NCBI GenBank assembly: GCA_963977445.1
Contig: CAXBPH010000001.1
Span: 16,709 to 80,708, forward strand
From: an uncultured bacterium
GTDB taxonomy: Bacteria; Hydrogenedentota; Hydrogenedentia; Hydrogenedentales; JAEUWI01
DNA: 64,000 bases
Direction: 5' to 3'
Shown: one piece after another, positions 6,916 to 63,666 of the stretch
Layout: each line of letters begins with the position of its first letter
How positions within the stretch are numbered: position 1 is the first letter of the stretch
Translations under genes and position numbers: made by a program
Notes under the pieces: model-generated
Seen by the model: the letters and a program-made list of their open reading frames with translations, nothing else
Databases searched by the model: none
Told to the model about the DNA's origin: nothing

Positions 6916-7178
6916 CTCCTGAAATTCCGTTTATCCAGCCTGCCTTACATGCCGCCCGAGCCTATCCCCAATGTATCAGGAGCGTTGCTCTGGTATAACA
7001 ATACACCTCACCCCCCGGTGCGCTTCAAGCACAACCCAAACCGCTCAAGGTTGCGGATAGTGCCCCGTCCCATTGATTTTTGATTCCCCCGGGCGGTACG
7101 TTCTTGGTAGGACTTCGTTCGACAACCATTTCCACCAGAAATTCATCCTGAATACGATGAGACAAGGAGGACAAGAAA

Positions 7179-7364: not shown

Positions 7365-7442
7365 CGCACAAAGTTGGGTCGATGTAGTGCTGACGACCCC
7401 GGCACGTCAGCTACGCTGCTCGGGTGCCGTTGTCATAGCACG

Positions 7443-26640: not shown

Positions 26641-26654
26641 GAGAACTCCCTACC

Positions 26655-27674: not shown

Positions 27675-27716
27675 GGTTGCGTTGAAGCCCGTCCGCACGG
27701 GTGCTACCATCACGCC

Positions 27717-30661: not shown

Positions 30662-30666
30662 TTCCT

Positions 30667-31632: not shown

Positions 31633-31785
31633 GACGATAGGCGAAATAGTCCTGACCAAGGTCACGCAATTTTCGAACTTCCTACGTAACGCCTCCTGAA
31701 TAACCCAACCCTTTTCCCTTCCAAGCACGGACTGGGGTAGAATCATGCCCGATGTGCACCACAACCTAGCTTCAGGCCTGATCCT

Positions 31786-34134: not shown

Positions 34135-34190
34135 AAATTGTACCGCTGGTTGGATTTTGTCCGCCAGTCTCATAACTCAAGGAATCACGA

Positions 34191-35447
34191 TTGCGTATCA
34201 GTCTGGTCGATTTACTCTTCTCCTGGCCCCCCAATGGCGGGGCCGATGTCGATCTGTATAATCTCGCAACGGGCCTGACCCGCGCCGGTCACGATGTACA
34301 GGTGGTCGTCGTAAACGACGCCAACTCCTGGGAGCGGGGCGCCATCCACAGCGGACATTTCTCCTTTTCTCTCCTGGGCGTGTCGGGTACGGGGCGCAAC
34401 TTCCATCGGAAGCGGCTGCCTGCCCGTATTCGCGAAGCAGTGGACATGTGGAACCCCGACGTGGTCTTTCTGGGCGATGGCTTCCTCATGAAACCCTACG
34501 TAGGGCTCGCCCTCGCAGACTATCCACTCGTCGTCCGTTACTATGCCTACGAAATGGCCTGTCTCCGCGATATACTCCAATTTAAGGACGGCGCGCCCTG
34601 TCCCAACCACTATCTAAAGACGCCTGGCGTCTGCCGCGCCTGTGCCTTTGAGCATCTCGGCCCGGAGATTAAGTCGGGGCGGCACCACGCGTGGACCCAG
34701 GAATACCTCGCCGCACAGGCCTATGACCCGGGCTATCGAAACGTCGCAGAGGAATTTCTCGGGCGCATTCACAGTGCCATCGTTTACAACGCGCGGATGG
34801 AGGAAAACCTGAAGCACCACTGCGCCGATGTGTATGTGGTGCCCGGCGGTGTGGACAGCCAACGATTCACCTTTGAACCACAGGCCCCAAAATCGCCCAA
34901 AGAATCCAAGCGCATCTTAATGGCGGGCCGGGCAGAAGATCCCATGAAGGGGCTTGATGTCCTCCTGGAAGCGGGCGAGCGCCTCTATCAACAGCGGCGG
35001 GACTTTATGATTCACGCCACCGTGCCCGAAGAAACGCCCATGCCCTCTTTCGCCCTGGCCATTGGATGGCAATCCCACACCTCCCTGGTTGAATACTACC
35101 GGCAGGCCGATATCTGCGTGGTGCCCAGCCGCTGGGAAGAACCCTTTGGCCTCGTCGCCCTGGAGGCCATGGCGACCGGACGTCCCGTATGTGCCAGTCG
35201 TGTAGGTGGCCTGCAGGACATCGTGGTTCACAAAGAAACGGGTTTTCTCTTCGATTCCGGTGATGCCGCCGAACTGGCCAAACAGCTGGACGTCCTGCTG
35301 GACAACCCCAATTTGCGTCAACGCATGGGCATCGCAGCCCACCGACGGGTCTATGCGGAATACCGTTGGCCCCACATCGTGGAAGAGTACTACATCCCCA
35401 TTCTGGAAGCGGCCTGCGAAAGCGGTACGCGGATGGTGGCTCCATGA
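34191..35447 (+). CDS. glycosyltransferase family 4 (GT-B, retaining)
   Basis: EPFGLVALEAMATGRPVCASRVGGLQDIV motif. TTG start with aagga RBS. Confidence 0.8.
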   Translation: MRISLVDLLFSWPPNGGADVDLYNLATGLTRAGHDVQVVVVNDANSWERGAIHSGHFSFSLLGVSGTGRNFHRKRLPARIREAVDMWNPDVVFLGDGFLMKPYVGLALADYPLVVRYYAYEMACLRDILQFKDGAPCPNHYLKTPGVCRACAFEHLGPEIKSGRHHAWTQEYLAAQAYDPGYRNVAEEFLGRIHSAIVYNARMEENLKHHCADVYVVPGGVDSQRFTFEPQAPKSPKESKRILMAGRAEDPMKGLDVLLEAGERLYQQRRDFMIHATVPEETPMPSFALAIGWQSHTSLVEYYRQADICVVPSRWEEPFGLVALEAMATGRPVCASRVGGLQDIVVHKETGFLFDSGDAAELAKQLDVLLDNPNLRQRMGIAAHRRVYAEYRWPHIVEEYYIPILEAACESGTRMVAP

Positions 35448-39498: not shown

Positions 39499-42400
39499 GT
39501 GGCCAGAGAAACAAGGCAGGGAATTATCACAATGAAAAATCACCGCAATCGATTTGTGTTGGGCATGACGGTCAGTACGCTGCTTTGCGGACTCTGGCAA
39601 CCGCAACTTGACGCCCAGCAAGAAAGCGCCGAGACCCTGGCGGGCATGGAAACCGCTCCCGGACTCGAAGTGACGCTCTTCGCATCTGAGGACCAACTGG
39701 TCAATCCAACGGCCATAGACATCGGTCCAGACGGACGGGTCTGGGTGACGGAGGCAGCCAACTACCGCCTCTTCAAACATCCCGTTGTCCAGGAAGGTGG
39801 TGATCGTGTCCGCGTCCTTGAAGATACGGATGGAGACGGCCGTTGCGATAAAGCGACCACGTTCTACCAGGATCCTTCGCTCCAGGCACCGCTGGGCATC
39901 GCTATCCTCGGCGACCGGGTCTATGTGTGCCAAAGCCCCGACCTCTTCTATCTCGAAGACCTCGACAAAGACGGTAAGGCCGACAAGAAAACCATCATCC
40001 TCACCGGCTTCGGGGGCGTTGATCATGACCACGCCATACATGGCATCATGGCGGGCCCCGATGGTCTTATTTACATGACCGTAGGCGATGGCGGCCTTGA
40101 CGTGACCGATAAATCGGGCCACCGCATCACGGCTGGCAAGGGCGCTGAGAATCCCGAGTTTGATGCGGCCACCGTGTTACGCACCGATCCTGAGGGCAAT
40201 CATCTGGAGATCCTGGCCGAGGGCATGCGCAACCCCTATGAGCCCACCATAAACTCCTTTGGCACCATATTTGGTTCGGACAATGACGACGATGGCAACG
40301 AACAGGTCCAGATTAATGACGTCATGGAAGGCGGACATTATGGGTACTGGCCCCGGCGCCAGGGCGACCGTCGCCTTGATGCGATCCATTGGAACAAAGA
40401 CCGCGCCGGCGTAATGCCCAATATGATTCGCACGGGATTTGGCTCGCCCACCGGCATCCTGTTTTACGAAGGCTCCCTCCTTCCGACGCGCCTGCAGAAC
40501 ACCTTGATTCATGCAGACGCGGGTCCGGGCGTCATTCGCTCCTACCGCGCCGTGGCCAATGGCGCAGGCTACAGTGGCGAAACAGAAATTATCCTCTCCG
40601 CGCCAAAAGACAAATGGTTTCGTCCCAGCGACGTCTGCGTAGCGCCTGATGGTTCCGTGCTTGTCGCAGACTGGTACGACCCGGGCGTCGGCGGTCACAA
40701 CATGGGTGACACAACCCGTGGCCGAATCTACCGCCTGGCACCGCCTGCAACGCCCTATACGATTCCCCCGCTGGAGTTAACGACAGACGAAGGCATTACC
40801 AACGCCCTGGCCTCCCCCAACCTGGCCCGCCGCTACCTGGCCTATACCGTCCTCACCGGAGACCTTAAGGGTGCCGAAGTGCCCCTGCTCCATAAGATTT
40901 ATCAAAGCAATGATCCGGTCCTCCGCGCACGGGCCCTCTGGCTCCTCGGACAGGAAAAAAACCACGGCTTGGAAACCCTCCTGGAAGCGGCCAAAGATGA
41001 TGCCCCGGCCTTCCGCGTTGAAGCCGTTCGCCTGTTGGCCGCCCGGGGTTCGGATGCGCTCTTCATGGCCGCTGGGTTGGTCGACGACCCCAACCCCATG
41101 GTCCGCCGCCAGGTGCTGGTAGAACTGCGCAACCTGCCGGATTCCTCCAAGCGAGACGCATGGCTTATCGCCCTGGCCCTGCAATATGACGGCCAGGATC
41201 GATTCTATCGGGAGGCAGTGGGTATCGCCTTCACCGGCCGGGAATCCTGGGGCTTTGAACAACTTCATGAGAAATTGGGTGGCCGCTGGGATGAACGCCT
41301 CTCCGGCCTGGCCCTCCAACTTCATCCCCCAGAGGCTATGGTGATCGCCGAGACCGCACTCAGCAACGCCAACCTTGGTGATACCCCCCGAAAATTGGCC
41401 ATGGACGTGCTCGACGCCATCGGCACCGAGGAAAGCGGCAAGCTTCTCGTCCAACTCATCGAAGCACCCGGCACCGAAGCCACCCTTTTCGAGCACGCCC
41501 TGCACCACCTTTCCCGGAATGGCGGCCAGGACTGGAGCAGCGTTACCGGCGGCGACGTCCTGGACGACGCCCTCGCGACCGCCTTGGATGACCCGGGACG
41601 CAGCAAGGCGGTGTGGTCCTTCCTTGCCGACACCCAACGACAGAGCTTCGTACCGGTATTGATTGCCCGTGCAAACCAGGAAACACTCACACTGGACAGT
41701 CGATTGGCCTCCCTGAGCGGCATCCGAGCGATTGCGCCCAAAGTAGGCCCCAAGGATGCCGACGGCATGGTAAAGGAGCTCGCACCCCTGCTGCAGGATA
41801 AAAATGAATTGTTGCGGAACGCGGTTCTCCAGACGATCCAGGATTTCCGTGGCAGCGCCAGCCGTTCCCTTCTACTGGACCTCGTTTTGGACATAGAACA
41901 GGATCTGACCCTGCGCGCGGACCTCGCCAAACACCTGGCGGGCACCCAGTCTGGCGCCATTGCGCTGCTGGATGCGGTGGAACAGGAAACATTGCCGGCT
42001 GACCTGCTGCCCGTGGTTTCGGAACAGATTCACAACAGCCCCTTCGAAGATGCCCGCATGATGGCGGAACAACTGCTTCCCCGAGACACCACCGCCGATG
42101 GTGCGGCCCTGCCCCCCATGGAGGAACTGATAACCATGGCGGGCGACGCGGAACGGGGCAAGATGGTCTTCTTCAGCGAAGATTTTGCCCAATGCTTCCG
42201 CTGCCACAGAATCGGAGAGGAAGGCAAAGAAGTGGGTCCCAATCTCACGGTGATTGGCCAGAAATTCGGCCGGGAAGGCATTCTGGAATCCATCCTCTTT
42301 CCGAGTGCAGCCATTTCCCACGAATATGAGGTTTGGATAGTGGAAACCGAGTGGGACGGCTTCCTCAGCGGCTTCATTGTGAGTGAGAACGACAAAGAAG

Positions 42401-42561
42401 TGAGACTGATGGATGCTACCGGCACCGTAAAAGATTTGAAGCGGTCTGATATCCTCGACACCCGGAAAAGTGCGACTTCACTCATGCCGACGGGACTGGC
42501 AGCGGCCATGTCGGCCCAGGATTTGAGCGATCTGGTAGCCTATCTGGCAACACTCAAATAG
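39499..42561 (+). CDS. PVC-type large secreted protein: membrane-bound-dehydrogenase-like beta-propeller + HEAT repeats + C-terminal CxxCH heme-binding domain
   Basis: Signal peptide. DIGPDGRVWVTE / VAPDGSVLVADWYDPGVGGH propeller blades. HEAT/PBS-lyase-like repeats. C-terminal CFRCHRIGEEGKEVGPNLT cytochrome-c motif (Pirellula/Verrucomicrobium-type heme-binding domain). Confidence 0.7.
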   Translation: MARETRQGIITMKNHRNRFVLGMTVSTLLCGLWQPQLDAQQESAETLAGMETAPGLEVTLFASEDQLVNPTAIDIGPDGRVWVTEAANYRLFKHPVVQEGGDRVRVLEDTDGDGRCDKATTFYQDPSLQAPLGIAILGDRVYVCQSPDLFYLEDLDKDGKADKKTIILTGFGGVDHDHAIHGIMAGPDGLIYMTVGDGGLDVTDKSGHRITAGKGAENPEFDAATVLRTDPEGNHLEILAEGMRNPYEPTINSFGTIFGSDNDDDGNEQVQINDVMEGGHYGYWPRRQGDRRLDAIHWNKDRAGVMPNMIRTGFGSPTGILFYEGSLLPTRLQNTLIHADAGPGVIRSYRAVANGAGYSGETEIILSAPKDKWFRPSDVCVAPDGSVLVADWYDPGVGGHNMGDTTRGRIYRLAPPATPYTIPPLELTTDEGITNALASPNLARRYLAYTVLTGDLKGAEVPLLHKIYQSNDPVLRARALWLLGQEKNHGLETLLEAAKDDAPAFRVEAVRLLAARGSDALFMAAGLVDDPNPMVRRQVLVELRNLPDSSKRDAWLIALALQYDGQDRFYREAVGIAFTGRESWGFEQLHEKLGGRWDERLSGLALQLHPPEAMVIAETALSNANLGDTPRKLAMDVLDAIGTEESGKLLVQLIEAPGTEATLFEHALHHLSRNGGQDWSSVTGGDVLDDALATALDDPGRSKAVWSFLADTQRQSFVPVLIARANQETLTLDSRLASLSGIRAIAPKVGPKDADGMVKELAPLLQDKNELLRNAVLQTIQDFRGSASRSLLLDLVLDIEQDLTLRADLAKHLAGTQSGAIALLDAVEQETLPADLLPVVSEQIHNSPFEDARMMAEQLLPRDTTADGAALPPMEELITMAGDAERGKMVFFSEDFAQCFRCHRIGEEGKEVGPNLTVIGQKFGREGILESILFPSAAISHEYEVWIVETEWDGFLSGFIVSENDKEVRLMDATGTVKDLKRSDILDTRKSATSLMPTGLAAAMSAQDLSDLVAYLATLK

Positions 42562-43991: not shown

Positions 43992-44336
43992 ATGCCAGGA
44001 TTGGAACACGCTTCGTGCATCTATCATCCGGGAAAAATAGCCGCTTCGAAATGCAAACAATGTGGAAAAACGACCTGCGCCCAGTGCACGGTCTCGGGCC
44101 CCACGGGAGCCTTTTGTTCTACCCCCTGCCGCACGGCGAATGAGGCACGGGTTATTCAAGCGGGTGACACCAGTGGTAGAGCACGATCCACATTCTTCGT
44201 AAGAATTCGCGGTATCTTCAGCAAACTCATCATTTTGCTTGTTATACTCCTCGCCGCCGCATGGGTCACCACCTTCATGTATATTCCCGGCCTCTCAGAA
44301 GTGATAAACACCCTGCGTGCCTCGCTGGGTATCTAG
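43992..44336 (+). CDS. zinc-ribbon (B-box-like) protein with C-terminal TM helix
   Basis: CIYHPGKIAASKCKQCGKTTCAQCTV...CSTPC, then hydrophobic IILLVILLAAAWVTTFMYIP. Confidence 0.4.
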   Translation: MPGLEHASCIYHPGKIAASKCKQCGKTTCAQCTVSGPTGAFCSTPCRTANEARVIQAGDTSGRARSTFFVRIRGIFSKLIILLVILLAAAWVTTFMYIPGLSEVINTLRASLGI

Positions 44337-44490
44337 GAGTCTGACTCCTGGAAGCCCCCGACTCCCAGGCATGCTATACAGCCATATTATCTATTCATAA
44401 GGTCGTTCCCATCGTCACATGGGAATGGCACGTGGTCAGTCGTTGTGTAGGCGCAATCTTGTGTTTCCACAACAAAGCAGGAGAGCAATC

Positions 44491-44928
44491 ATGGATTTAA
44501 GTGGACTGAAGTGGCCTTTTATCATCGTTGTAATCGTCGGCATTGGCTGGTTGGCCACCAGCGGCGGCGTAAACTGGATGTATGGAAAATACACCGCAGC
44601 CAGCCCGGGCGTTGACGCGCAGCAGGACTTACGCGATGAAGCTGGCCTGACGAGCCTGGCCGGATACACCTATATCCTTTGGAAATGGGAGACTACCATC
44701 CAGATAATTGAAGTAAGTATCGACCGCTATGGTGAAAATGGACCCAATTACTGGTACAATCTCGAACGACTCAGTAGCTGCTACGACCGCATTGGGCAGT
44801 ATCAGGTAAGCGTCGATATCTTGCGAGAGTTAATGGATGCAAACGCGCACGAGATCGATGAACGGGTGGGCAACTTCGACGCCCTCAATCTTCGGGCCGC
44901 AAAACTTATAGAGATGCACGAACTATAG
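44491..44928 (+). CDS. hypothetical membrane protein
   Basis: aggaga RBS 8 nt upstream of the ATG at 44491. One N-terminal TM helix (WPFIIVVIVGIGWLATSG). Unknown family. Confidence 0.35.
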   Translation: MDLSGLKWPFIIVVIVGIGWLATSGGVNWMYGKYTAASPGVDAQQDLRDEAGLTSLAGYTYILWKWETTIQIIEVSIDRYGENGPNYWYNLERLSSCYDRIGQYQVSVDILRELMDANAHEIDERVGNFDALNLRAAKLIEMHEL

Positions 44929-44930
44929 TG

Positions 44931-45677
44931 ATGAATAACAAAGACACCCTGATTGGTAGAATTCCCGTGTTGGAGTGCCTCCGCGCCAAGCGCCGGAAGG
45001 CACTTCAACTATTTATATTGGAGTCCGGTAACGGGCTGGAAGAGATCACTTCCGCAGCACGAAGTATACCCATCGAAAAGGTCTCGCGCCTGGAATTGGA
45101 TCGCATGACCGATGGGGCCAATCACCAGGGCGTGGTACTCCATGCCAATCCCCTGCCTGTCCGAACGTTGCCCGAATGGCTCGGCCGCCCGGTCGCTGCC
45201 GATGCGTTCATCGTCATTCTGGACTGTGTGGAAGACCCCCAGAATTTTGGGGCCATCGTGCGATCAGCGGCCGCCTGTGGTGCCGCAGCGGTGCTCTTTC
45301 CAAAGGATCGGAGTGCGCCCATCGGCCCGGCCACGGTAAAAAGTGCTGCCGGGGCGCTGGAACACATTGATATGATTCAGGTGCCCAATATTGCGCGGGC
45401 AGCGGCCGAACTCAAGAAACATGATTTCTGGTTGGCCGCGCTCATGCCCGAAGGACCGCAAGTACTTTGGGATGCTGATCTTAAGGGACGCATAGCCATC
45501 GTGGTGGGCAATGAAGGCAAAGGTATTCGTCCCCTCGTGGAGAAACAGTGCGACCTTGCCGTGCGTATACCGCTCACGGGCTCCATTACCAGCCTGAACG
45601 CGTCGGTAAGCACGGCTATTGCCCTGGCGGAATGCGTCAGACAGCGCCATAACGCCGCCACAGCGAAGCGCCCATAA
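44931..45677 (+). CDS. rlmB: 23S rRNA (guanosine-2'-O)-methyltransferase RlmB / SpoU-TrmH family
   Basis: VILDCVEDPQNFGAIVRSAAACGAAAVLF, VVGNEGKGIRP and IPLTGSITSLNASVSTAIAL SPOUT motifs. N-terminal RlmB-type substrate-binding domain. Confidence 0.75.
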   Translation: MNNKDTLIGRIPVLECLRAKRRKALQLFILESGNGLEEITSAARSIPIEKVSRLELDRMTDGANHQGVVLHANPLPVRTLPEWLGRPVAADAFIVILDCVEDPQNFGAIVRSAAACGAAAVLFPKDRSAPIGPATVKSAAGALEHIDMIQVPNIARAAAELKKHDFWLAALMPEGPQVLWDADLKGRIAIVVGNEGKGIRPLVEKQCDLAVRIPLTGSITSLNASVSTAIALAECVRQRHNAATAKRP

Positions 45678-45837: not shown

Positions 45838-46089
45838 TCAATCGAGAACGGGGGGCGTATCCAAATCCCGTTCACGTAACTTTTTAGCATAATACGTCAC
45901 GATGCGTCGCAGCAGTTCATCACGCTTAATACCTTCAACCTCCGCCTTCCACCGCAAAAATGCGGCGGCGGACCGGGGCAACGTAACTGTCATCTTGACC
46001 ATATCCGATGGATTGGTATCCCCCAGATGTTGATCTTTCTTTTTACGCAGTCGCGCGGCCTGTTCGTTCTCCGTCATGTTTTCCTCCAC
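45838..46089 (-). CDS. ribbon-helix-helix (CopG/Arc-like) small DNA-binding protein
   Basis: MVKMTVTLPRSAAAFLRWKAEVEGIKRDELLRRIV beta-strand then two helices. 83 aa. Borders an AT-rich intergenic region. Confidence 0.45.
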   Translation of the reverse strand: MEENMTENEQAARLRKKKDQHLGDTNPSDMVKMTVTLPRSAAAFLRWKAEVEGIKRDELLRRIVTYYAKKLRERDLDTPPVLD

Positions 46090-46340: not shown

Positions 46341-48032
46341 TTGAATATTCTGGGCATTGGTGGCTATTCGCACGATTCCGCAGCGGCACTGGTATGTGAC
46401 GGAAGAGTCGTTGCCGCCGTAGCCGAAGAACGTCTCTCCCGGGTGAAACATCAGGGCGGCATCCCCCACCGCGCCATCGCCTGGTGCCTGGAAGCGGGTG
46501 GAATAACGGCGGAAGAGGTGGACCATGTGGGCTGCTACATGCGCCCGGGCCTTCGCCTCGGAAAGCGCCTTCCCTACCGTGCATCGACCTTCTTCAAGCA
46601 TCCATTTTACGCTACAGCCTTTGCCGGGTATGAAATAATTCACAACGCCCAATACATCCAAGGTATGCGGAAGCTGACACCGCCCCATGGGAAGCTCCAC
46701 TATATGGAACACCATCCGGCCCACGCAGCCAGCGCTTTCTTATGCAGCCCCTTTGAGGAAGCCGCCCTCCTCTCCATCGATTATGTGGGCGAATGGGCCG
46801 TAACCTGGACCGGAGTGGGCCGTGGCGGCGCCATCACCCGCCTTCGCCAGACCAACTACCCCAACTCCCTCGGCGTCTTTTATTCCGCCCTCACCGACTA
46901 CCTCGGCTTTCTCCGTGCGTCGGATGAATACAAGGTGATGGGCCTGGCGTCCTACGGGGAACCGACCTACTATGACGATCTGAAAGAGGTCATTCGTCCC
47001 CAGGAGGACGGCTGGTATGCCATCGATCACCGATACACGGCGTGGCACTATCTTCCCGGTTCCCGTTGTGGTTATTTCAGCCAACGGTTTATTGACCGCT
47101 TCGGGCCGCCCCGAAAAAAAGACGAGCCCATCACCGAGCATCACCGCAATCTGGCGGCCTCGGCCCAGCGCCTTCTCGAAGACATCGTATTGAATCTGTG
47201 CCGCAGCCTTCACAAGGAAACCGGCCTGAAAAAGCTCTGTCTTGCTGGAGGCGTTGCCTTGAATTGCTCCATGAATGGGCGACTCAAACGGGAAGGCCCC
47301 TTTGAAGACATCTGGGTGCAACCCGCTTCGGGCGATGATGGCATCGCTATTGGAGCGGCACTCCAGCTCCACCACCAGTTCGGTGGTTCCCCCCGGAACT
47401 TTGTGATGGATCACGCTTTTCTGGGCCCCGAAGTTTCCAATGAAGAAATCGGCGATTTTCTGGACCTGACCAAGACCCCCTATCACCGCTCAGAAAACAT
47501 CGCCGAAGATACGGCGAAGTTACTGGCTGAGGGGAAAATTGTGGGTTGGTTTCAGGGCCCGATGGAGTTTGGCCCCCGTGCCTTGGGAAGTCGCAGTATT
47601 CTGGCCGACCCGACCCGACCCGACATGAAAGACCTCCTGAACAAACACGTCAAATTTCGGGAAGAATTTCGACCCTTTGCCCCGAGCGTCCTGGCGGAAC
47701 ACGCGAGCACCTATTTTGAAGGCTGTACCGATTCGCCCTTCATGCTCTTTGTCTATCCCGTGCGCGCCGAGAAACAGGCGGAAGTCCCGGCGGTCACCCA
47801 TATCGACGGCACCGCCCGGGTGCAGACGGTCACGGAAGCGGCCAATCCCCGTTACTATCAACTTATCAAGGCCTTTGCCGACCTCCGCGGAACGCCCATG
47901 CTGCTCAACACCAGTTTTAACGTGATGGGTGAGCCTATCGTGCACAGCCCGTCTGACGCGATCCGATGTTTTTATAGCACGGGCATGGATGCCCTGGCTA
48001 TTGGCGACTATCTCATTGTAAAGAATCCCTGA
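46341..48032 (+). CDS. carbamoyltransferase, NodU/CmcH/TobZ family
   Basis: N-terminal MNILGIGGYSHDSAAALVCDGRVVAAVAEERLSRVKH (ASKHA-like domain) and C-terminal YrdC-like domain. 563 aa, matching O-carbamoyltransferases. TTG start preceded by gggagag. Confidence 0.85.
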   Translation: MNILGIGGYSHDSAAALVCDGRVVAAVAEERLSRVKHQGGIPHRAIAWCLEAGGITAEEVDHVGCYMRPGLRLGKRLPYRASTFFKHPFYATAFAGYEIIHNAQYIQGMRKLTPPHGKLHYMEHHPAHAASAFLCSPFEEAALLSIDYVGEWAVTWTGVGRGGAITRLRQTNYPNSLGVFYSALTDYLGFLRASDEYKVMGLASYGEPTYYDDLKEVIRPQEDGWYAIDHRYTAWHYLPGSRCGYFSQRFIDRFGPPRKKDEPITEHHRNLAASAQRLLEDIVLNLCRSLHKETGLKKLCLAGGVALNCSMNGRLKREGPFEDIWVQPASGDDGIAIGAALQLHHQFGGSPRNFVMDHAFLGPEVSNEEIGDFLDLTKTPYHRSENIAEDTAKLLAEGKIVGWFQGPMEFGPRALGSRSILADPTRPDMKDLLNKHVKFREEFRPFAPSVLAEHASTYFEGCTDSPFMLFVYPVRAEKQAEVPAVTHIDGTARVQTVTEAANPRYYQLIKAFADLRGTPMLLNTSFNVMGEPIVHSPSDAIRCFYSTGMDALAIGDYLIVKNP

Positions 48033-48063
48033 ATCCAACCCAGGTATCGGACAGGCCAGTTAC

Positions 48064-49182
48064 ATGCGCATCCTCATTCCCACCGTGGACTACCCCCCCA
48101 TTGAAGGGGGCATCAGTACGGTTGCCCTGCAGGTGTCGCGCGTGCTGGCACGCCAGGGGCACGACGTCACGGTGGTCGCCCCTGCGTTTCCGGGTATGGA
48201 GGCCTTTGATGCGGCCGAGCCCGTCACCGTCGTGCGATTCCCCGGTTACGATCTGGGCTGGTTTCGCCTCCTCCCCCTCCTCAGGACGAGCTGGCCCCTT
48301 GTGGCAGATACAGACCTTATTCTGGCCATCAACGTGGCCTACGGGGGCATCCTGGGCCGTCTGGCCTATGCGCGACGGGGCACGCCCTACATCAATTTCG
48401 CCTACGCCTACGAATTCCTGAAGTTCGGAGGCAATCCCGTCGCCACAATGGCCCTGCGCTCGATCTATCGCAACGGCCTGCGCTGCATCGCCATCAGTCG
48501 CTTCACCCAGGAAAACCTGATTAATTTCGGTGTCCATGAATCCCATATTCGGATTGCCCTTCCGGGGGCCTCGCCCGCGACGGCAGTGCCGGAAATTACC
48601 GTAGCCCAAGCCCGTCACGAGCTTGATCTCCATGAGGGGCCCTTTGTCCTTGCCGTGGGACGCTTCATTCCACGAAAAGGGCACATACGCCTCGTGGAAG
48701 CCCTGCCCTATGTTCAGGAACGGGTCGGAGCCGTCCAACTGGTCATGGTGGGACGGGGACCGGAACGAGAACGGTGTGTGGAAAAGGCCCACGCTCTGGG
48801 TATTGAAGGCTCCGTGCGTTGTCCCGGCTACGTCGAGGAAGACATACTGCAAGCCCTCTATCAGGATTGCGCCTGCTTCGCCCTGCCCACCGGACAGGAT
48901 GACGATGGCCAGGTGGAAGGATTCGGCCTGGTTTTTACCGAGGCCCACGCCCATGGCAAGGCCGTCGTCGCCGGGCGTTCCGGGGGCGTCACCGATGCGG
49001 TGCTTCATGACCGAACGGGAATCGTCGTACCCTCGAAAGACGCCGACCGCCTCGTGGAAGCCTTGGCCGCTCTGCTCCAGGACCCCGACCACGCTGCTAC
49101 CCTCGGGAAGGCCGGATTGGATCGCGTGCGGGACACGTTGAACTGGGACCGATTTACGGAACAGGTTCTGGCCGATGACTGA
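48064..49182 (+). CDS. glycosyltransferase family 4
   Basis: EGFGLVFTEAHAHGKAVVAGRSGGVTDAV motif. GT-B fold. Confidence 0.8.
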   Translation: MRILIPTVDYPPIEGGISTVALQVSRVLARQGHDVTVVAPAFPGMEAFDAAEPVTVVRFPGYDLGWFRLLPLLRTSWPLVADTDLILAINVAYGGILGRLAYARRGTPYINFAYAYEFLKFGGNPVATMALRSIYRNGLRCIAISRFTQENLINFGVHESHIRIALPGASPATAVPEITVAQARHELDLHEGPFVLAVGRFIPRKGHIRLVEALPYVQERVGAVQLVMVGRGPERERCVEKAHALGIEGSVRCPGYVEEDILQALYQDCACFALPTGQDDDGQVEGFGLVFTEAHAHGKAVVAGRSGGVTDAVLHDRTGIVVPSKDADRLVEALAALLQDPDHAATLGKAGLDRVRDTLNWDRFTEQVLADD

Positions 49183-50350
49183 CCCGGAAAACCCCAGGCG
49201 AATCCGCGTCGCCCATATCATCACCCGCCTCTGTAAGGGTGGGGCCCAGGAGAACACCTTTCACACCGTACGTCTCGCCAATCGCGACCGCTTTGACGTG
49301 GATCTTATCAGCGGGCCCACCCGGGGTCGTGAAGGAAGTATCGAAGCCGCCATCGAGGCCGCCGGGATTCCTATACATCGCGAACCTGCTCTGGTGCGCG
49401 CACCCTTACCACCGTTGGACGTGCTGGCATTGCGTGGCCTTACCCGAAAGCTCAAGGCCGGCGACTACGATATTGTCCACACCCACACCTCCAAGGCCGG
49501 AATCCTCGGAAGGCTGGCCGCCGAGCGGGCGGGCATCCCGCACGTGGTCCACACGCCCCATGGCAATGTATTCCACGGCTACTTTAATGGCCCCCTTACC
49601 CGCCTTTTCGTCTGGATGGAACGCCATGCCGCACGGCGAACGGACCGCATCATCGAATTGACGGCCGGCGGTATTGAGGAGCATCTGGCCGAGGGCATCG
49701 GACAGCGTGACCAATACTGCGTCATCTTCAGTGGGATAGATACGACCCCCTATGCCGAAGCCCGTGCACTGCGGGAGCAGACCCGTGCCCAACTCGGTGC
49801 GGGCCCCGATGAAATATTGATTGGTGCCGTTGGGCGCCTTGAACCCGTCAAGGGTTTCACGTATTTTGTAGCCATGGCCCAACTACTCAAAGCGACGAAG
49901 AGCCCGTTGCGATTCTTCCTAGTCGGCGAAGGTGCACTCCGCCCCGCCCTCGAAGCCCAAGCGGCGGAGGCTGGTGTTACCATCGACTTTCTGGGGCTCC
50001 GCGACGACATCCCCAATCTCATGGCCGCCTTCGACATGCTGGTCGTTCCTTCCATCAATGAGGGCATGGGCCGGGTCATTCTTGAAGCGGGTGCCGCAGA
50101 AACGCCCGTCGTCGCGTCCCGGGTCGGTGGTATTCCTGATGTCGTCGATGAGGACGAAACGGGGATGCTCGTACCACCGCGCTCCCCGGAGGCGCTGGCC
50201 GAAGCCGTCACGTCACTCGTCGCCTCTCCCGAACGCCGCAAACTCATGGGTGCCACGGCCCACGCCAAGGTGGTCCCCCACTACAGTCTTACCCGAATGG
50301 TTCAACGGATTGAAACCGTCTATGAGGAATTATTAAATGCGAACACCTGA
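49175..50350 (+). CDS. glycosyltransferase family 4
   Basis: EGMGRVILEAGAAETPVVASRVGGIPDVV motif. 8-nt overlap with the upstream GT4 (ATGACTGA). Confidence 0.8.
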   Translation: MTDPENPRRIRVAHIITRLCKGGAQENTFHTVRLANRDRFDVDLISGPTRGREGSIEAAIEAAGIPIHREPALVRAPLPPLDVLALRGLTRKLKAGDYDIVHTHTSKAGILGRLAAERAGIPHVVHTPHGNVFHGYFNGPLTRLFVWMERHAARRTDRIIELTAGGIEEHLAEGIGQRDQYCVIFSGIDTTPYAEARALREQTRAQLGAGPDEILIGAVGRLEPVKGFTYFVAMAQLLKATKSPLRFFLVGEGALRPALEAQAAEAGVTIDFLGLRDDIPNLMAAFDMLVVPSINEGMGRVILEAGAAETPVVASRVGGIPDVVDEDETGMLVPPRSPEALAEAVTSLVASPERRKLMGATAHAKVVPHYSLTRMVQRIETVYEELLNANT

Positions 50351-51071
50351 GACCCCTGCCGATGAATTTCTGTCCAAACAGCGACTGCTGGTCATCTCCC
50401 CCCACGCGGACGACGAAAGCTTTGGCTGCGCAGGCACCATGGCCCGCATCAAGGATTTGGGCGGCGAAGTCTATGTCATCTGCTGCTCCGTGGGCACCTT
50501 GAAACACTATGACGGCAAAGAAGAGCTCGTCGACGGGAGTACCCGGGAAAAAGAATTTGAGTCGGTCATGGATTACCTCAAGGTGGACGACTATGAATAC
50601 CTCTATCGGGATGCGGAATCACACCTGCGACTGGACATGATTCCCCGTCGCGATCTCATCTCCAAGTTTGAGCGGGAGTCCCGCCTTTCCCTCGACAAAC
50701 TCCAGCCCACCATGCTGGCCATCCCCGTATCCTCGTACAACCAGGATCACGAGGCCGTATTCCGGGCGGCCTTCACTGCGGCACGGCCCGGTGTCCCCAA
50801 GGACAAACCGGTGCAGCCACTGGTGCTGGGATACAACAACACGTCCCTTTTCTGGAGCCTGGAGCATGAAAAAATTCACATGAACTTCTATGTCGACATA
50901 TCCGACTATCTCGAGAACAAATTACATGCCCTTAGTCTGCACAAGTCCCAGATGCGCGACCCCATTCACCATTCCAGCGTGCAGAATGTGGAGTATGCCG
51001 CCCGTCTCCGCGGCAGCGAGATTTCCGTTGCTGCCGCCGAAGGATTCATGCTCTTTCGACAGATACTGTAG
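50337..51071 (+). CDS. PIG-L / LmbE-family N-acetylglucosaminyl deacetylase
   Basis: LLVISPHADDESFGCAGT zinc-binding signature of the LmbE/PIG-L family. 14-nt overlap with the upstream GT4. Confidence 0.8.
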   Translation: MRTPETPADEFLSKQRLLVISPHADDESFGCAGTMARIKDLGGEVYVICCSVGTLKHYDGKEELVDGSTREKEFESVMDYLKVDDYEYLYRDAESHLRLDMIPRRDLISKFERESRLSLDKLQPTMLAIPVSSYNQDHEAVFRAAFTAARPGVPKDKPVQPLVLGYNNTSLFWSLEHEKIHMNFYVDISDYLENKLHALSLHKSQMRDPIHHSSVQNVEYAARLRGSEISVAAAEGFMLFRQIL

Positions 51072-51244: not shown

Positions 51245-52294
51245 ATGAGCGACCAGAAACTCGTAATCGGCATGCCAGCAGGCTCGCTGGCCGATCCCAA
51301 CCGCGGCGGCAACCTTATCGATCTGCTGAAGCACGCGGGTTTCCCCACCAGTGGCTACGAAAAAGGCGGCCCCACCACCTTCCCCATGAACAGCGTCCTC
51401 ATGGGATGGGATGGACGGCCCCAGGAATTCGGTGCCCAGTTGGCTATCGGTGAAATTGACGTCGCAATCGCGGGCGATGACTGGATCAAAGAGCGGGTCC
51501 TCGAATACAAGTATGAATACAACCAGGAAATCGAGCTGGAAAAAGTGCTCTCCCTGAACCGTGGCGGTGTCCGGTTGGTGATTATCAACAATCCGCTGGG
51601 CGACGACACGAGTTTCGACGAATGGCTGCGTCACATGCTGGTCGAAAAGCCGCTCATTACCATGGTTTCAGAGATGCCTTATCTGGCCCTTGACTGGTTC
51701 CACCGCAAGATCGCCGATTTGGGCTTCCAGGATTCCCACGGCGAATTCTCCGTGCAGAAGTTCAAGACCCCCCCAAAGATAAAGTCGGGCTTGGTTATTT
51801 ATGAAACCTGGGGCAAGACCGAAGCCAAGGTTCTGAAGGGCTCCGTAGATTTCGGCCTGGAAATCACCCAGACGGGCAGCGCCATCCGAAACTATGGTTT
51901 GGAGATGAGCGAAGAAGTCTTCACCTCCGAAACCGGCATCTGGGCGAATCCGAAGATCAAGGAAAACCCCGAGAAACTGGAATTGGCGCGCATGTTCCTG
52001 CTGAACCTGCAGGGCTCCATTTTTGCGGAAGACAAACTCCTCCTCTCTTTCAATGCCCGCAACAAGGATGTGGAAGAGGTCATTGCCTATCTCAGTGAGA
52101 ACGCCCTATTCGGCGATGAGCCCACCATGAGTCAGGGCACGAGCTTTACGCAGTTCACGGTACAGGTGGCTATCAAGAATAAGCGGATGGGCCTGGCACA
52201 CGTACGTTATGAACTCGCCAAGATGGGGGCCACCCACATCGAGACCATCCCCCTGGACTCGTGCATTACGGGCCTGGACGCCATCGACTTCTGA
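51245..52294 (+). CDS. hisG: ATP phosphoribosyltransferase (HisG)-like protein, long form with insertions
   Basis: Block-wise similarity to HisG: LVIGMPAGSLAD (cf. RIAMQKSGRLSD), EIDVAIAGDDWIKE (cf. VDLGIIGENVLEE), LVIYETWG...GSVDFGLEITQTGSAIRNYGL (cf. [30 protein letters not shown]). 349 aa versus about 300 typical. Confidence 0.5.
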   Translation: MSDQKLVIGMPAGSLADPNRGGNLIDLLKHAGFPTSGYEKGGPTTFPMNSVLMGWDGRPQEFGAQLAIGEIDVAIAGDDWIKERVLEYKYEYNQEIELEKVLSLNRGGVRLVIINNPLGDDTSFDEWLRHMLVEKPLITMVSEMPYLALDWFHRKIADLGFQDSHGEFSVQKFKTPPKIKSGLVIYETWGKTEAKVLKGSVDFGLEITQTGSAIRNYGLEMSEEVFTSETGIWANPKIKENPEKLELARMFLLNLQGSIFAEDKLLLSFNARNKDVEEVIAYLSENALFGDEPTMSQGTSFTQFTVQVAIKNKRMGLAHVRYELAKMGATHIETIPLDSCITGLDAIDF

Positions 52295-52313: not shown

Positions 52314-52350
52314 GCGGGACCATTCTTCGGAGTGGTCCCGCTTTCTTTTT
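52314..52350 (+). terminator. rho-independent terminator after the hisG-like gene
   Basis: gcgggaccat-tcttcggag-tggtcccgc followed by TTTCTTTTT, 20 nt after the stop. Confidence 0.7.
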
Positions 52351-58820: not shown

Positions 58821-61800
58821 GTGAGAGAGACTGTTATGCATCCCATCCCATACATTTCCCTGCTGATCGGGGTCGTTTCCCTAGTTCAGGCGCCCGCCGT
58901 GTCCGCCACCGAGGTTGATTTCCAGCAGGACATTCTCCCCCTGATGGCAGACCGGTGCTTTGCCTGCCATGGTCCCGATGGCAATCAACGCAAGGGCGAC
59001 CTGCGGCTTGATGTGGAATCCGCTGCAAAAAAGGAAGTCATCGTATCGGGAGAACCCGAAAACAGCGAGCTCATTCGGCGCATTCTCACCACGGATCCCG
59101 ACGACCATATGCCCCCACCGGAATCGGAGAAGGAAAGTCTCACCCCGGAACAAATCGAGTTGTTTCGCGCATGGATACAACAAGGCGCGACCTGGGAAGG
59201 TCACTGGGCCTATACGACGCCCTCCCTCCCCGATACGCCCGCCGTCGTAACCCAACAGTGGGCTCGGACCCTTGTCGACCCCTTTATCCTGGCGCGTCTG
59301 GAGGAGAAGGGCCTGTCTCCTTCGCCCGAGGCGGACCGGGAAACCCTCATCCGACGTCTCACCCTGGATCTAACGGGGCTGCCACCCACCCTGGACGCCA
59401 TCGACCGCTTTGTCTTGGACAACAGCGACGATGCCTATGAGAACCTCGTTGACGGCCTGCTGAATACCCCTGCCTATGGGGAGCACATGGCCCGGATGTG
59501 GCTCGATGTGGCCCGCTATGCCGACACCAATGGCTACCAGAATGATTTCCACCGGGTCATGTGGCCCTGGCGCGACTGGGTCGTTGGTGCCTTCAACGAC
59601 AATATGCCCTATGACCAGTTCGTCGTTGAACAGCTTGCCGGTGACCTCCTCCCCAACGCAACAGAATCCCAGCGCATCGCCACGGGGTTCAACCGCAATA
59701 ACAAGAGCGTCACCGAGGGCGGCTCCATTGAAGAAGAATGGCTCGTGGAAAACCTCGTGGACCGGGTGGAGACCACGTCGCTGGCCTTTCTCGGTCTGAC
59801 CATGGGGTGTGCGCGCTGTCACGATCACAAGTATGACCCCATCACCCAGAAAGATTTCTATCAATTCTACGCGTTCTTCAATAGCACCGAGGACAATGGC
59901 TTTTATCAGGAAACCCGGGGCAATACGGGGCCACAGGTCTTCGTGCCCGATTTTAAACAGCAGCAGGAACTGACCCGGCTGGACCAGGCCATTAATCGGG
60001 CCCAGGCCGAATACAACGAGGCCCGCGCGGCCCAGGGTGGTGAGTTTGACGGCTGGCTGAACGCGCTCCGAGAGGTCAAACCCGCGGAGAACGCACCCCA
60101 TCCCGTCTACGAGGCGGCCCTGGCGGGAACGCTGCCCACCCAGGAAGCACCACCGGCCAACACGCCGGTCTGGAAAGCGGGCCTCCTCGGGCAAGCCCTC
60201 GCGCTGGACGGTACGGCAACCTCGACCATCGATTTGGGTCAGGGCGTCACCTTTGATCGGGAAAAGCCCTTTACCGCACTCCTGTGGGTCCGGCCCACGT
60301 CAGCGGGTGCCCTCTACAGCAAGATGGATGAAGCGCAGGACTTCCGTGGCGTGGATCTGCTCCTTTCCGGCAACGGCGCAATCGAGGCTCATGTCGTCAG
60401 CGCATGGGATTCGGATGCCTTCAAGATTCAGGCAGAGAACGCCGTCACCATGGGCGTATGGAATTTTGTAGGCCTCACCTATGACGGCTCCAGTAAAGCG
60501 TCCGGCATGAAAGTCTATGTCAATGGCATGGAAGTCCCCGTGAAGGTCTTGAACGACGCCCTGAGCGGCCCCATCGACACGGCCCAACCCCTCCGCGTGG
60601 GCCAACGCACGTCTAGCACCTATCTCAACGGGGAAGTCGCTGGCCTTCAGTTTTTTGACCAGGCCCTGCCGCTGGACGTGGTGACCCAATTCCAGGACGT
60701 CTCCCTGGCATCCGCCTTGACGACGGATATTGGCGAGGATCAGATGAAGGCCCTTCAGGGGTTTCATAATCTCCAAATCACCAAGCTCCTTCGTCCCCAG
60801 CAGGAAGCCCTCGACGCGACAAACAAGGCCCGCAATGAGTATGCGAAAAACATCCCCAGTGTCATGGTGATGGAAGAGCGGGAAACGCCCCGGCCGACTT
60901 ATCTCCTCAAGCGGGGTGCCTATGACGCGCCCGACACCAGTGAAGAACTCCATCCGAACACACCCGGCTTCCTGCCTGCCCTGGCCGACGGCGTCCCCCA
61001 CAATCGTCTGGGCCTGGCCCAATGGCTCATTTCACCGGAAAATCCACTCACAGCACGGGTCGCGATAAACCGATTCTGGCAAATGCTCTTTGGCCGTGGT
61101 CTCGTGAAGACTTCCGAAGATTTTGGCGTTCAGGGAAGCCCCCCGACCCACCCCAAGTTGCTCGATGCCCTGTCCCTTCACTTTGAGGAAACCGGTTGGG
61201 ACGTGAAAGGACTGTTGAAGGATCTGGTCATGAGCGCCACCTACCGTCAATCGAGTGCCCTGAATCAGACCTTGCTGGCCCAGGACCCGGACAACCAGTT
61301 TTATGCCCGGGCACCCCGTTATCGCCTCTCTGCAGAGATGATTCGGGACAACGCTCTGGCCGTCAGTGGCTTACTGGCGAAGGAACTCGGCGGACCACCG
61401 GCCATGCCCTATCAACCGGGGGGACTGTGGGAAGAACTCGCGGGCGGTGCCAGCCAAGGCCCCTATGTGCAGGGAACGGGTGATGATCTCTATCGCAGAA
61501 GCCTCTATACCCATCGCAAGCGAACCGTGCCCCACCCCACGTTGACGACCTTTGACGCCCCGAGCTTTGAGTATTGCCTCGCACGCCGGGGACGCACCAA
61601 CACCCCCTTGCAGGCGCTGGCGCTCTTGAATGACACCACCTATGTGGAAGCAGCCCGCCATCTGGCCCAGCGGATGGTGACCGAAGTAGACGGCGACGCC
61701 CGTGCCCGTCTGGCCTATGGCTTTCGCCTGGCAACGGGACGTAACCCCACGGAATCGGAATTGAATTCCCTGCAACTCGGCTATGACCGCTATGAAGAGA

Positions 61801-61949
61801 AATATGCCAGCGACCCAGAGGCCAGCCAGGCCTTGGTGAGCAATGGCGAATCTCCCGTTCCCGGGGACATCCCCGCAGCGACCCTGGCGGCCTATACACC
61901 CGTCGCAGGCGTTCTGCTCAACCTCGACGAAACCTTGACGCGGGAATAG
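58821..61949 (+). CDS. Planctomycete cytochrome-c domain protein (PSCyt1 + PSCyt2/DUF1549 + PSD1/DUF1553)
   Basis: Signal peptide. CFACHG heme-binding motif near the N-terminus. 1042 aa with the DUF1549...DUF1553 layout, followed by a DUF1501 gene as is typical. Confidence 0.8.
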   Translation: MRETVMHPIPYISLLIGVVSLVQAPAVSATEVDFQQDILPLMADRCFACHGPDGNQRKGDLRLDVESAAKKEVIVSGEPENSELIRRILTTDPDDHMPPPESEKESLTPEQIELFRAWIQQGATWEGHWAYTTPSLPDTPAVVTQQWARTLVDPFILARLEEKGLSPSPEADRETLIRRLTLDLTGLPPTLDAIDRFVLDNSDDAYENLVDGLLNTPAYGEHMARMWLDVARYADTNGYQNDFHRVMWPWRDWVVGAFNDNMPYDQFVVEQLAGDLLPNATESQRIATGFNRNNKSVTEGGSIEEEWLVENLVDRVETTSLAFLGLTMGCARCHDHKYDPITQKDFYQFYAFFNSTEDNGFYQETRGNTGPQVFVPDFKQQQELTRLDQAINRAQAEYNEARAAQGGEFDGWLNALREVKPAENAPHPVYEAALAGTLPTQEAPPANTPVWKAGLLGQALALDGTATSTIDLGQGVTFDREKPFTALLWVRPTSAGALYSKMDEAQDFRGVDLLLSGNGAIEAHVVSAWDSDAFKIQAENAVTMGVWNFVGLTYDGSSKASGMKVYVNGMEVPVKVLNDALSGPIDTAQPLRVGQRTSSTYLNGEVAGLQFFDQALPLDVVTQFQDVSLASALTTDIGEDQMKALQGFHNLQITKLLRPQQEALDATNKARNEYAKNIPSVMVMEERETPRPTYLLKRGAYDAPDTSEELHPNTPGFLPALADGVPHNRLGLAQWLISPENPLTARVAINRFWQMLFGRGLVKTSEDFGVQGSPPTHPKLLDALSLHFEETGWDVKGLLKDLVMSATYRQSSALNQTLLAQDPDNQFYARAPRYRLSAEMIRDNALAVSGLLAKELGGPPAMPYQPGGLWEELAGGASQGPYVQGTGDDLYRRSLYTHRKRTVPHPTLTTFDAPSFEYCLARRGRTNTPLQALALLNDTTYVEAARHLAQRMVTEVDGDARARLAYGFRLATGRNPTESELNSLQLGYDRYEEKYASDPEASQALVSNGESPVPGDIPAATLAAYTPVAGVLLNLDETLTRE

Positions 61950-62217: not shown

Positions 62218-63666
62218 ATGGACGCGCTAAAATTTGCCCAACATATTAACCGCCGCGACTTCCTCCAACGTGCCGGATGCAGCCTCGGTGCCGCCGCGCT
62301 CGGCCTCCTCGGCGCCGGCACCGCAACAGCATCGACGGAAGAAGATATTCGTAAAGTAGCCAACCACTTCGCTCCCCGGGCCAAGCGGGTTATTTACCTC
62401 TTTCAGTCCGGCGCACCCACCCAACTCGAAACCTTCGACTATAAGCCGGGACTGAAAGACCTTGATACCACCGAGCTGCCCGACAGCATCCGCATGGGAC
62501 AACGGCTAACCGGCATGACCTCGGGCCAGGCGAATTTTCCCGTGACGGCGTCCCGTTTCGGCTTTTCGCAATATGGCCAAAGCGGCATGTGGCTCAGCGA
62601 ATTACTTCCCCATACCGCGGGCATCGCCGACGACATCTGCGTCATCCGCTCCATGCACACCGAAGCCATTAACCATGACCCGGCCATCACCTTCTGCCAG
62701 ACGGGCTCCCAACTTGCGGGCAAACCCAGCATGGGCGCCTGGGTGGCCTATGGCCTCGGCAGCAGCAACGAAAACCTACCTACCTTCACCGTGCTGATAT
62801 CCCGGGGCACGGGACGCCTCGCCACCCAGCCCCTTTATGACCGTCTCTGGGGCAGCGGTGCCCTCCCCGGACGTTACCAGGGCATAAAACTTCGTGCCGG
62901 TGAAGAACCCGTGCTCTACCTGGCCAACCCGGCAGGATGCGACACCAACATTCGCCGCCAGATGCTTGACCAGCTCAACGACCTCAACGAACAGAAGTAC
63001 AACGCGGTGCAGGACCCCGAAATTCGCACCCGTATCGAACAATACGAGTTGGCCTTCCGCATGCAGTCCGCCGTGCCCGATCTCACCGACATCAGCGACG
63101 AACCGGAACACATCCTGGAAATGTATGGCCCCGACGTGCGCAAACCGGGCACCTACGCCCGCAACTGCCTCCTCGCCCGCCGCATGGCCGAGCGGGACGT
63201 CCGCTTCGTACAGCTTTATCACATGGGCTGGGATCACCACGACAACCTGCCCGACCACCTCACCAAGCAATGCCGCGACACGGATCAACCTTCGGCGGCG
63301 CTGGTGGCCGACTTGAAACAACGCGGCATGCTCGACGACACCCTCGTCATCTGGGGCGGCGAATTTGGCCGCACCGTCTACAGCCAGGGAAAAGTCACCG
63401 ACACCACCTATGGCCGGGATCACCACCCCCGCTGCTTCTCCCTCTGGATGGCCGGCGGCGGCATCAAGCCCGGCATCGTCCACGGCGAGACCGACGATTT
63501 CAGCTACAACATCGTGAAGGACCCGGTCCACGTAAATGACTTGCACGCCACCATCCTCGATTGCCTCGGCCTCGACCACGAACGCCTCTCCGTCCCCTTC
63601 CAGGGTCTGGACGTCCGCCTCTCCGGCGTGGAGGAACACCACCCGGTGAAAGCCATATTGGCGTAG
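62218..63666 (+). CDS. DUF1501 (sulfatase-like) protein with twin-arginine signal
   Basis: Tat motif [23 protein letters not shown]. 482 aa. The DUF1501 family is canonically paired with DUF1549/DUF1553 proteins. Confidence 0.8.

Follow-up and report, generated by a model that had tools for sequence, protein, structure and literature searches.

A phylum-wide carbamoyltransferase, GT4 and PIG-L cassette in Hydrogenedentota: a putative envelope-glycan tailoring operon

The lipopolysaccharide (LPS) core operon PA5005–PA5001 of Pseudomonas aeruginosa encodes the carbamoyltransferase WapO, the family-4 glycosyltransferase (GT4) WapH, Mig-14, the PIG-L protein DnpA, and a further glycosyltransferase (PMC8005017, PMC13552734, PMC10579960). 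WapO, with carbamoyl phosphate supplied by CarB, is held to carbamoylate a core heptose, while the GT4 enzyme WaaG transfers GalNAc and DnpA is a proposed, unproven de-N-acetylase acting before alanylation (PMC8005017, PMC13552734, PMC10579960). The wapO-wapH-mig14-dnpA genes are the closest known parallel to a four-gene cassette in a 64,000-nucleotide stretch of DNA (the window) from an uncultured bacterium of the Hydrogenedentota (contig CAXBPH010000001.1, positions 16,709–80,708). In 5' to 3' order and all on the + strand, the cassette encodes a carbamoyltransferase (CT), two GT4 enzymes (GT4a and GT4b), and a PIG-L/LmbE-family deacetylase (PIG-L). It is an uncharacterised GT4/PIG-L/carbamoyltransferase glycan-tailoring operon of a kind already known, notable mainly for its conservation throughout the phylum and as a marker of a PIG-L subfamily associated with LPS genes, and does not represent a new class of system.

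When the window genes are set against the published description of wapO-wapH-mig14-dnpA (PA5005–PA5002), both have CT, GT4, and PIG-L genes adjacent on one strand. The logic would also be alike, with N-acetylhexosamine (HexNAc) transfer by WaaG, proposed N-deacetylation by DnpA, and sugar carbamoylation by WapO. However, the Pseudomonas genes sit in a waa cluster of ~17 genes with GT9 heptosyltransferases, heptose kinases, and Mig-14, whereas the cassette stands alone and lacks Mig-14. Neither the window nor most related loci contain inner-core genes (GT9, kinases, WaaL); four Hydrogenedentota loci (L119, L120, L123, L131) have a GT9 gene, scoring 100 bits with Pfam, ~1.5 kb downstream of the cassette. 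DnpA is membrane-localised according to the title of a cited paper, whereas the cassette PIG-L is predicted to be soluble.

Pairing of a GT4 enzyme with a deacetylase is also known from membrane lipids. In the GpgS/GpgD/GpgF system, which makes GlcN-phosphatidylglycerol in P. aeruginosa, and in HexSDF of C. difficile, a GT4 enzyme transfers GlcNAc onto a membrane lipid and a cytoplasmic deacetylase exposes the amine (PMC12713373). GpgD belongs to another deacetylase family (COG3233) and the Gpg operon includes a flippase gene, whereas the cassette has a PIG-L enzyme and no membrane protein. Together with the Pseudomonas LPS-core operon, which the original prediction for this DNA had missed, GpgS/GpgD and hexSDF contradict its view that a GT4 and LmbE pair defines only three routes.

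Mycothiol (MshA/MshB) and bacillithiol (BshA/BshB) synthesis likewise proceed by a GT4 GlcNAc transferase and then a PIG-L/LmbE deacetylase. The Msh and Bsh families are the best named NCBIfam matches of GT4b and PIG-L, yet the scores fall 2- to 10-fold below the equivalog cut-offs. The cassette further differs in having a second GT4 and a CT, and its PIG-L carries NQDH in place of HPDH. The kanamycin/tobramycin set KanM1-KanN-KanM2-TobZ comprises the same four enzyme families and TobZ is a solved homologue of the CT. However, that set belongs to an actinomycete biosynthetic island with genes for 2-deoxystreptamine and aminosugar supply, whereas the cassette is a phylum-wide core module without such genes. 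The closest solved relative of the PIG-L is the archaeal diacetylchitobiose deacetylase Dac (PH0499, PDB 3WE7; E 3e-14, TM 0.63), although Dac is catabolic and only 23–26% identical, and other LmbE-fold enzymes match almost as well.

The cassette is compact (Table 1). A 31-nt gap separates CT from GT4a, GT4a and GT4b overlap by 8 nt, and GT4b and PIG-L by 14 nt. The four families, the coordinates, and both overlaps had been given exactly by the original prediction, in agreement with the list of open reading frames (ORFs) and with Pfam, where the domain scores of all four proteins exceed the curated cut-offs. A GGGAGAG motif upstream supports the TTG start of CT, as do the matching gene calls of the public record for the source contig, a 95.5-kb TARA Oceans metagenome scaffold, and this start yields a family-typical N-terminus, MNILGIGGYSHDS. 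The GC content of the cassette is 0.55–0.62, similar to that of the remaining window. Weak Pfam 'GT4-conflict' matches prompted a defence-system reading, which was rejected when PADLOC found no match for the cassette proteins.

Conservation was assessed in public assemblies (L082–L086, L170, L171) and in a metagenome scan with a PIG-L alignment (L088–L141). Linkage was counted for loci with a PIG-L at least 69% identical, and only where the contig reaches far enough. GT4b lies directly upstream of the orthologous PIG-L in 35/36 loci, GT4a is present upstream in 25 of 28, and CT in 19 of 20, while the GT4b and PIG-L genes overlap in all eight gene-called loci. The linkage of the four genes is far beyond chance, and the conserved unit that had been predicted is thus borne out. 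The few departures are informative about its organisation. L113 and L098 retain only the GT4b-PIG-L pair, and L170 has GT4a-GT4b-PIG-L without CT. In L092 the gene at the CT position (5925–7679) is only ~41% identical to the window CT, while PIG-L and GT4b of the same locus are 78% and 68% identical; here the tailoring enzyme has either diverged rapidly or been replaced. An IS200/IS605-type Y1 transposase lies between GT4a and GT4b in L086 (13005–13460) and L087 (7312–7767) (1.4-Mb Hydrogenedentota contig, no gene lost), and L084 has an additional 106-aa ORF. Because the exceptions L113 and L098 keep the GT4b/PIG-L pair and its overlap is found in every gene-called locus, this pair is the core of the cassette, and CT behaves as a dispensable decorating step. 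The overlap itself suggests translational coupling.

Median identity to the window proteins is 73% for PIG-L, 67% for CT, 61% for GT4b, and 51% for GT4a, compared with 64% and 57% for the neighbouring HisG-like and RlmB proteins. PIG-L is therefore the most and GT4a the least conserved member. Judged by these identities, PIG-L and CT appear to change as slowly as or slower than their housekeeping neighbours, which would fit a core cell component. Since the flanks are housekeeping or variable and conservation extends through the phylum, the cassette is a self-contained, vertically inherited module at housekeeping-level conservation and not a mobile or patchy island.

The host is a member of the Hydrogenedentota, which NCBI taxonomy places within the FCB group, and not of the Planctomycetota as had been proposed. 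Close homologues with a named source come almost entirely from metagenome-assembled genomes (MAGs) of Candidatus Hydrogenedentes/Hydrogenedentota (CT 66–74%, PIG-L 78–86%, HisG-like 64–77% identity); the two exceptions are labelled 'Nitrospiraceae bacterium' (CT and HisG-like matches) and plain 'bacterium'. Nine consecutive genes are also syntenic with the Hydrogenedentes MAG GCA_019637335.1, namely a kinase, p114, p146, RlmB, a 79-aa ORF, and the four cassette genes. A genome-collection scan with a CT alignment returned, among the matches listed, paralogues of 42–48% identity from many phyla. None of these listed paralogues, nine from Planctomycetota and one from Hydrogenedentota included, is accompanied by the cassette; the nine planctomycete CTs are only 44–46% identical and have no PIG-L nearby. 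The locus labelled as Nitrospiraceae (L085, GCA_011682535.1) carries a Hydrogenedentota-type cassette and HisG-like gene at 68–70% identity, and this MAG or contig has probably been binned or named wrongly. The window also encodes a PVC-type heme-binding CxxCH protein and PSCyt1/PSCyt2/PSD1, DUF1501, and DUF1559/N-methyl families. These families are usually read as planctomycete markers, and probably misled the earlier assignment.

The PIG-L sequence belongs to a distinct branch of its family. His23, Asp25, Asp26, and His138 do not vary across 17 orthologues and 13 sister-clade sequences and align with the motifs of PH0499. The metal-binding and catalytic roles of these residues (PH23ADD26E, His138) are presumed from what is known of MshB and Dac. 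In the second motif, S-Y-N-Q-D-H, the first His of the canonical HPDH is replaced by Asn135, which is invariant in the whole subfamily, and on this basis PIG-L is assigned to a distinct 'SYNQDH' subfamily of LmbE/PIG-L enzymes. Orthologues are 69–97% identical, and only 48 of 1.84 billion cluster representatives reach E ≤ 1e-30. A sharp family boundary was considered and rejected, as identities form a continuum (55, 49, 47, 45 ... 35%). Scores against the deacetylase equivalogs are low, at 21.5 bits for MshB (cut-off 224), 42.9 for BshB1 (182.5), and 49.9 for BshB2 (195). An AlphaFold2 model (pLDDT 75, pTM 0.80) matches the solved LmbE-fold enzymes Dac, BC1534, Orf2*, TT1542, BshB, and MshB with TM 0.57–0.65 at ranks 1–42. 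All LmbE-fold enzymes match about equally, and the idea of reading the substrate from the fold match was therefore dropped.

Both GT4 enzymes are of the GT-B type, with N-terminal Glyco_transf_4 and C-terminal Glycos_transf_1 halves above the gathering cut-off. GT4b retains the donor-binding and EX7E-type motifs in alignments with GlgM and MshA, and its best characterised relatives are GlgM (92 bits), MshA (116), and BshA (100). The nearest solved relatives of GT4a are PimB' (7e-22) and an SPS-like protein, PimA is also among its best relatives, and its orthologues are 42–74% identical. NCBIfam equivalogs for both lie far below cut-off; GT4b scores 178 bits with stp2, 116 with MshA against a cut-off of 462.5, and 100 with BshA against 273.7. 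The GpgS model NF053787 (cut-off 480) gives 69.9 bits for GT4b and 48.4 for GT4a.

The CT matches Carbam_trans_N (230.7 bits, residues 3–341) and Carbam_trans_C (254.5 bits, 392–561), both over the full profile. It has the two-domain build of TobZ/NodU/CmcH carbamoyltransferases, a Kae1-like N-terminal and a YrdC-like C-terminal domain, and its alignments with the solved O-carbamoyltransferases NovN (E 1e-101), GdmN (1e-99), and TobZ (2e-92), at 313–344 bits, run end to end. The blocks HDSAAAL, HHPAHA, DEYKVMGLA, GGVALN, DDG, RPFAPSV, and NTSFN are conserved and orthologues are 61–86% identical. Its score of 185.7 bits with the NodU equivalog NF041651, against a cut-off of 1000, argues that it is not NodU. 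Among the matches listed, the CT is nearer to widespread bacterial CTs (42–48%) than to antibiotic-tailoring enzymes.

The reading favoured here, given about an even chance of being correct, is that four soluble cytoplasmic enzymes tailor a lipid-anchored envelope glycan, most probably the LPS core, at the inner face of the cytoplasmic membrane. GT4b would move an alpha-linked N-acetylhexosamine (GlcNAc or GalNAc) from a uridine diphosphate (UDP)-sugar donor onto the acceptor, and PIG-L would then strip the N-acetyl group to leave a cationic amino sugar. GT4a would attach a further hexose. Finally, the YrdC-like domain of CT would form carbamoyl-AMP from carbamoyl phosphate and ATP, and the Kae1-like domain would pass the carbamoyl group to a sugar hydroxyl. 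This enzymology is predicted from family knowledge and intact motifs, and we infer the donors, the order of steps, the acceptor, and the product. In favour of an LPS-core acceptor are the precedent in Pseudomonas, the LPS-type gene neighbourhoods in which the closest outside relatives occur, and the linkage to GT9 in some members of the phylum; core extension also needs no additional flippase or polymerase genes.

These neighbourhoods are best seen in a sister clade of PIG-L proteins, which are 56–62% identical, share all motifs, and mostly occur without the cassette. The order GT9-p493-PIG-L recurs in L146, L148, L149, and L163, and in L146 these genes are joined by a Wzy_C O-antigen ligase, a methyltransferase, and two GT2 genes. 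The p493 protein (~493 aa; 4322–5803 in L146) is always placed between the GT9 heptosyltransferase and PIG-L in these four loci, and has a signal-peptide-like N-terminal hydrophobic segment and no Pfam family. Other arrangements are LptE-PIG-L-ThiI (L165, L160), PIG-L-WbqC(-DegT) (L150, L161, L164), and PIG-L-GFO/IDH/MocA-GT4-AsnB-GT4 (L155). L161 holds a complete divergent cassette (CT 60%, PIG-L 59%) between a CE4 deacetylase and WbqC. A cluster of PIG-L-GFO/IDH/MocA-B12-binding radical SAM genes in L142, L147, and L152, followed in L152 by a UbiA-like membrane protein and a methyltransferase, is of another flavour than the LPS-type contexts. Further afield, a Sinorhizobium polysaccharide cluster contains a 32% PIG-L relative, with an initiating sugar transferase on one side and DegT on the other. 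In Burkholderia RPE67, a CT relative of 43% identity shares an operon with GT2, GT4, and GT9 genes. Placement inside an ordinary LPS or O-antigen cluster, which the original prediction had counted as evidence against itself, is not seen in Hydrogenedentota but does apply to these closest outside relatives, which lie in LPS and polysaccharide clusters.

Several observations weigh against an LPS-core role. There is no LPS gene within 10 kb of the cassette in the window and at most related loci. Hydrophobic segments are absent from all four proteins, the GT4 enzymes are acidic (pI 5.7 and 6.4), and the best characterised relatives of GT4b, namely GlgM, MshA, and BshA, use small soluble acceptors. 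The likeness to Pseudomonas is one of families and adjacency, and the substrate of DnpA is itself unproven. Small-molecule clusters, too, contain CT relatives at a similar distance, such as one in Ralstonia that lies in a small-molecule-like cluster. The cassettes of L170 and L113 lack CT, and carbamoylation is therefore dispensable. We also know of no LPS structure for Hydrogenedentota.

Some of these points would suit a soluble cytoplasmic glycoside with a start like that of mycothiol or bacillithiol, a reading that seems possible but rather unlikely. GT4b would add GlcNAc to a small acceptor, PIG-L would deacetylate it, GT4a and CT would elaborate the product, and further steps, such as ligation to the free amine, would be encoded elsewhere. 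The overlapping GT4b-PIG-L pair mirrors MshA/MshB and BshA/BshB, the soluble acidic proteins and the soluble acceptors of the GT4b relatives are in keeping with such a product, and phylum-wide conservation would be expected of a major metabolite. The module also has no flippase, ligase, or membrane genes, and most loci lack a recurrent envelope neighbour. However, both GT4b and PIG-L fail the Msh and Bsh equivalog models, and outside the clade the nearest PIG-L relatives repeatedly occur beside LPS/polysaccharide genes and not metabolite genes. The presumed acceptor-site residues of MshA, Tyr110 and Thr134, used as a weak check on the nature of the acceptor, are not conserved in the alignment with GT4b. 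No ligase-like gene recurs in the flanking regions and these contain no BshC, in line with the earlier observation that genes for a Cys ligase and for 2-deoxystreptamine are missing nearby. We know of no carbamoylated low-molecular-weight glycoside of this type, which also counts against it. The core of the original idea, a carbamoylated GlcN-glycoside, survives in this reading, while its claim of a novel pathway has no support beyond the product being unknown. A previously unknown phylum-wide small glycoside, in the form of a carbamoylated GlcN di- or trisaccharide-like metabolite with a role like that of mycothiol or bacillithiol precursors, is considered unlikely. As a variant, CT might carbamoylate the freed amine, so that N-acetyl becomes N-carbamoyl and a ureido sugar results.

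PIG-L may instead act earlier, on a nucleotide sugar or on undecaprenyl-linked HexNAc, with the GT4 enzymes transferring the amino sugar into a surface polysaccharide or O-antigen. The strong conservation of PIG-L, still 56–62% identical where its neighbours differ, would suit a common small substrate, and its sister-lineage relatives adjoin the nucleotide-sugar enzymes GFO/IDH/MocA and DegT, as the Sinorhizobium relative does an initiating transferase and DegT. This is nevertheless distinctly improbable. The solved or characterised PIG-L matches found are all glycoside or aglycone deacetylases and none acts on nucleotide sugars; the Hydrogenedentota cassette has no nucleotide-sugar enzyme, initiating transferase, flippase, or polymerase beside it; and the conserved GT4b/PIG-L overlap fits a hand-over from product to substrate. 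An aminoglycoside-like or other secondary-metabolite core of the KanM1/KanN/KanM2/TobZ type is extremely unlikely, even though the family set is that of the kanamycin/tobramycin glycosylation-tailoring core, the CT aligns well with TobZ, GdmN, and NovN, and some CT relatives at 43% lie in small-molecule clusters. Genes for 2-deoxystreptamine, aminotransferases, dehydrogenases, resistance, or export are found neither in the window flanks (≤10 kb) nor as recurrent neighbours. GC content does not set the cassette apart from the remaining window, and the affinity of the CT to widespread bacterial CTs argues in the same direction. Vertical, phylum-wide and not patchy inheritance among housekeeping genes disfavours this part of the original proposal. 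Tailoring of a lipid-anchored envelope glycan thus continues to be the preferred reading.

Table 1. Features of the window, in window coordinates; the cassette genes are given first
Feature	Position	Strand	Description
CT, TobZ/NodU/CmcH-type carbamoyltransferase	46341–48032	+	563 aa, TTG start; Pfam Carbam_trans_N and Carbam_trans_C
GT4a, family-4 retaining GT-B glycosyltransferase	48064–49182	+	372 aa; Pfam Glyco_transf_4 and Glycos_transf_1
GT4b, family-4 glycosyltransferase	49175–50350	+	391 aa; Pfam Glyco_transf_4 and Glycos_transf_1
PIG-L/LmbE-family zinc de-N-acetylase	50337–51071	+	244 aa; Pfam PIG-L, 61 bits (cut-off 28.2)
HisG-like protein, divergent	51245–52294	+	349 aa; above Pfam HisG cut-off, below both NCBIfam cut-offs
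Ribbon-helix-helix-like ORF	45838–46077	-	79 aa; divergent from CT; L082 92%, L083 87%, L133 71%; no Pfam or PADLOC match
p114, p146/169, and RlmB trio	43992–45677	+	Directly upstream of the cassette in 6–7 related loci
ABC-transporter-type glycan cluster	26637–35447		~11 kb upstream of the cassette
ABC-2 permease (glycan cluster)	27717–28583		
Long ABC ATPase (glycan cluster)	28484–30661		
GT2 (glycan cluster)	30574–31632		
GT2 (glycan cluster)	31786–34134		
GT4 (glycan cluster)	34191–35447		
Planctomycete-type marker families	39499–42561, 58821–61949, 62218–63666, 15677–16642		Four families named in the text

The surroundings of the cassette vary between genomes and include RlmB, the HisG-like gene, Lon protease, an AlgE-like outer-membrane barrel, PMT_2, and heme genes. 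When all ORFs flanking the cassette in 37 loci were clustered, only the HisG-like gene, RlmB, and two small upstream ORFs recurred. In 25 of 43 loci the HisG-like gene is found downstream, no more than 1 kb from the cassette. There is no terminator-like site between it and PIG-L, and the sole strong one follows it at 52314–52341. It was considered as a fifth operon member and rejected, as it and the cassette are on separate contigs in GCA_019637335.1, and in L169 the two are unlinked; for the same reason it is taken as a housekeeping neighbour. The protein has a phosphoribosyl pyrophosphate (PRPP)-loop-like motif, EITQTGSAI, and no PDB sequence match at E ≤ 0.01 despite the many solved HisG structures. 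Its homologues are spread across Hydrogenedentota and named 'hypothetical protein' by NCBI.

Upstream, the 79-aa ribbon-helix-helix-like ORF may encode an orphan antitoxin or a regulator that acts locally. The p114 protein has a weak B-box zinc-finger match and one hydrophobic segment, and neither it nor p146/169 belongs to a known family. A link to RNA modification, raised by RlmB, ThiI, and tRNA methyltransferase neighbours at some loci, was rejected with nothing found beyond inherited synteny. The separate glycan cluster resembles a Wzm/Wzt O-antigen-type export system. The window also encodes an outer-membrane porin and the cell is therefore diderm.

Hydrogenedentota, for which a catalogue of ~179 genomes is reported (PMC11406978), are widespread. 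To our knowledge they are essentially uncultured, and we know of no experiments on the chemistry of their envelope. From a module with housekeeping-level conservation, a specific and testable trait can be predicted for the phylum: a free hexosamine and a carbamoyl group on a core glycan, most likely LPS. It also draws attention to the uncharacterised 'SYNQDH' branch of PIG-L proteins, which is repeatedly linked to LPS genes in several lineages. Should this branch be related to DnpA, defining its substrate might also illuminate the role of PIG-L enzymes of that kind in LPS cores.

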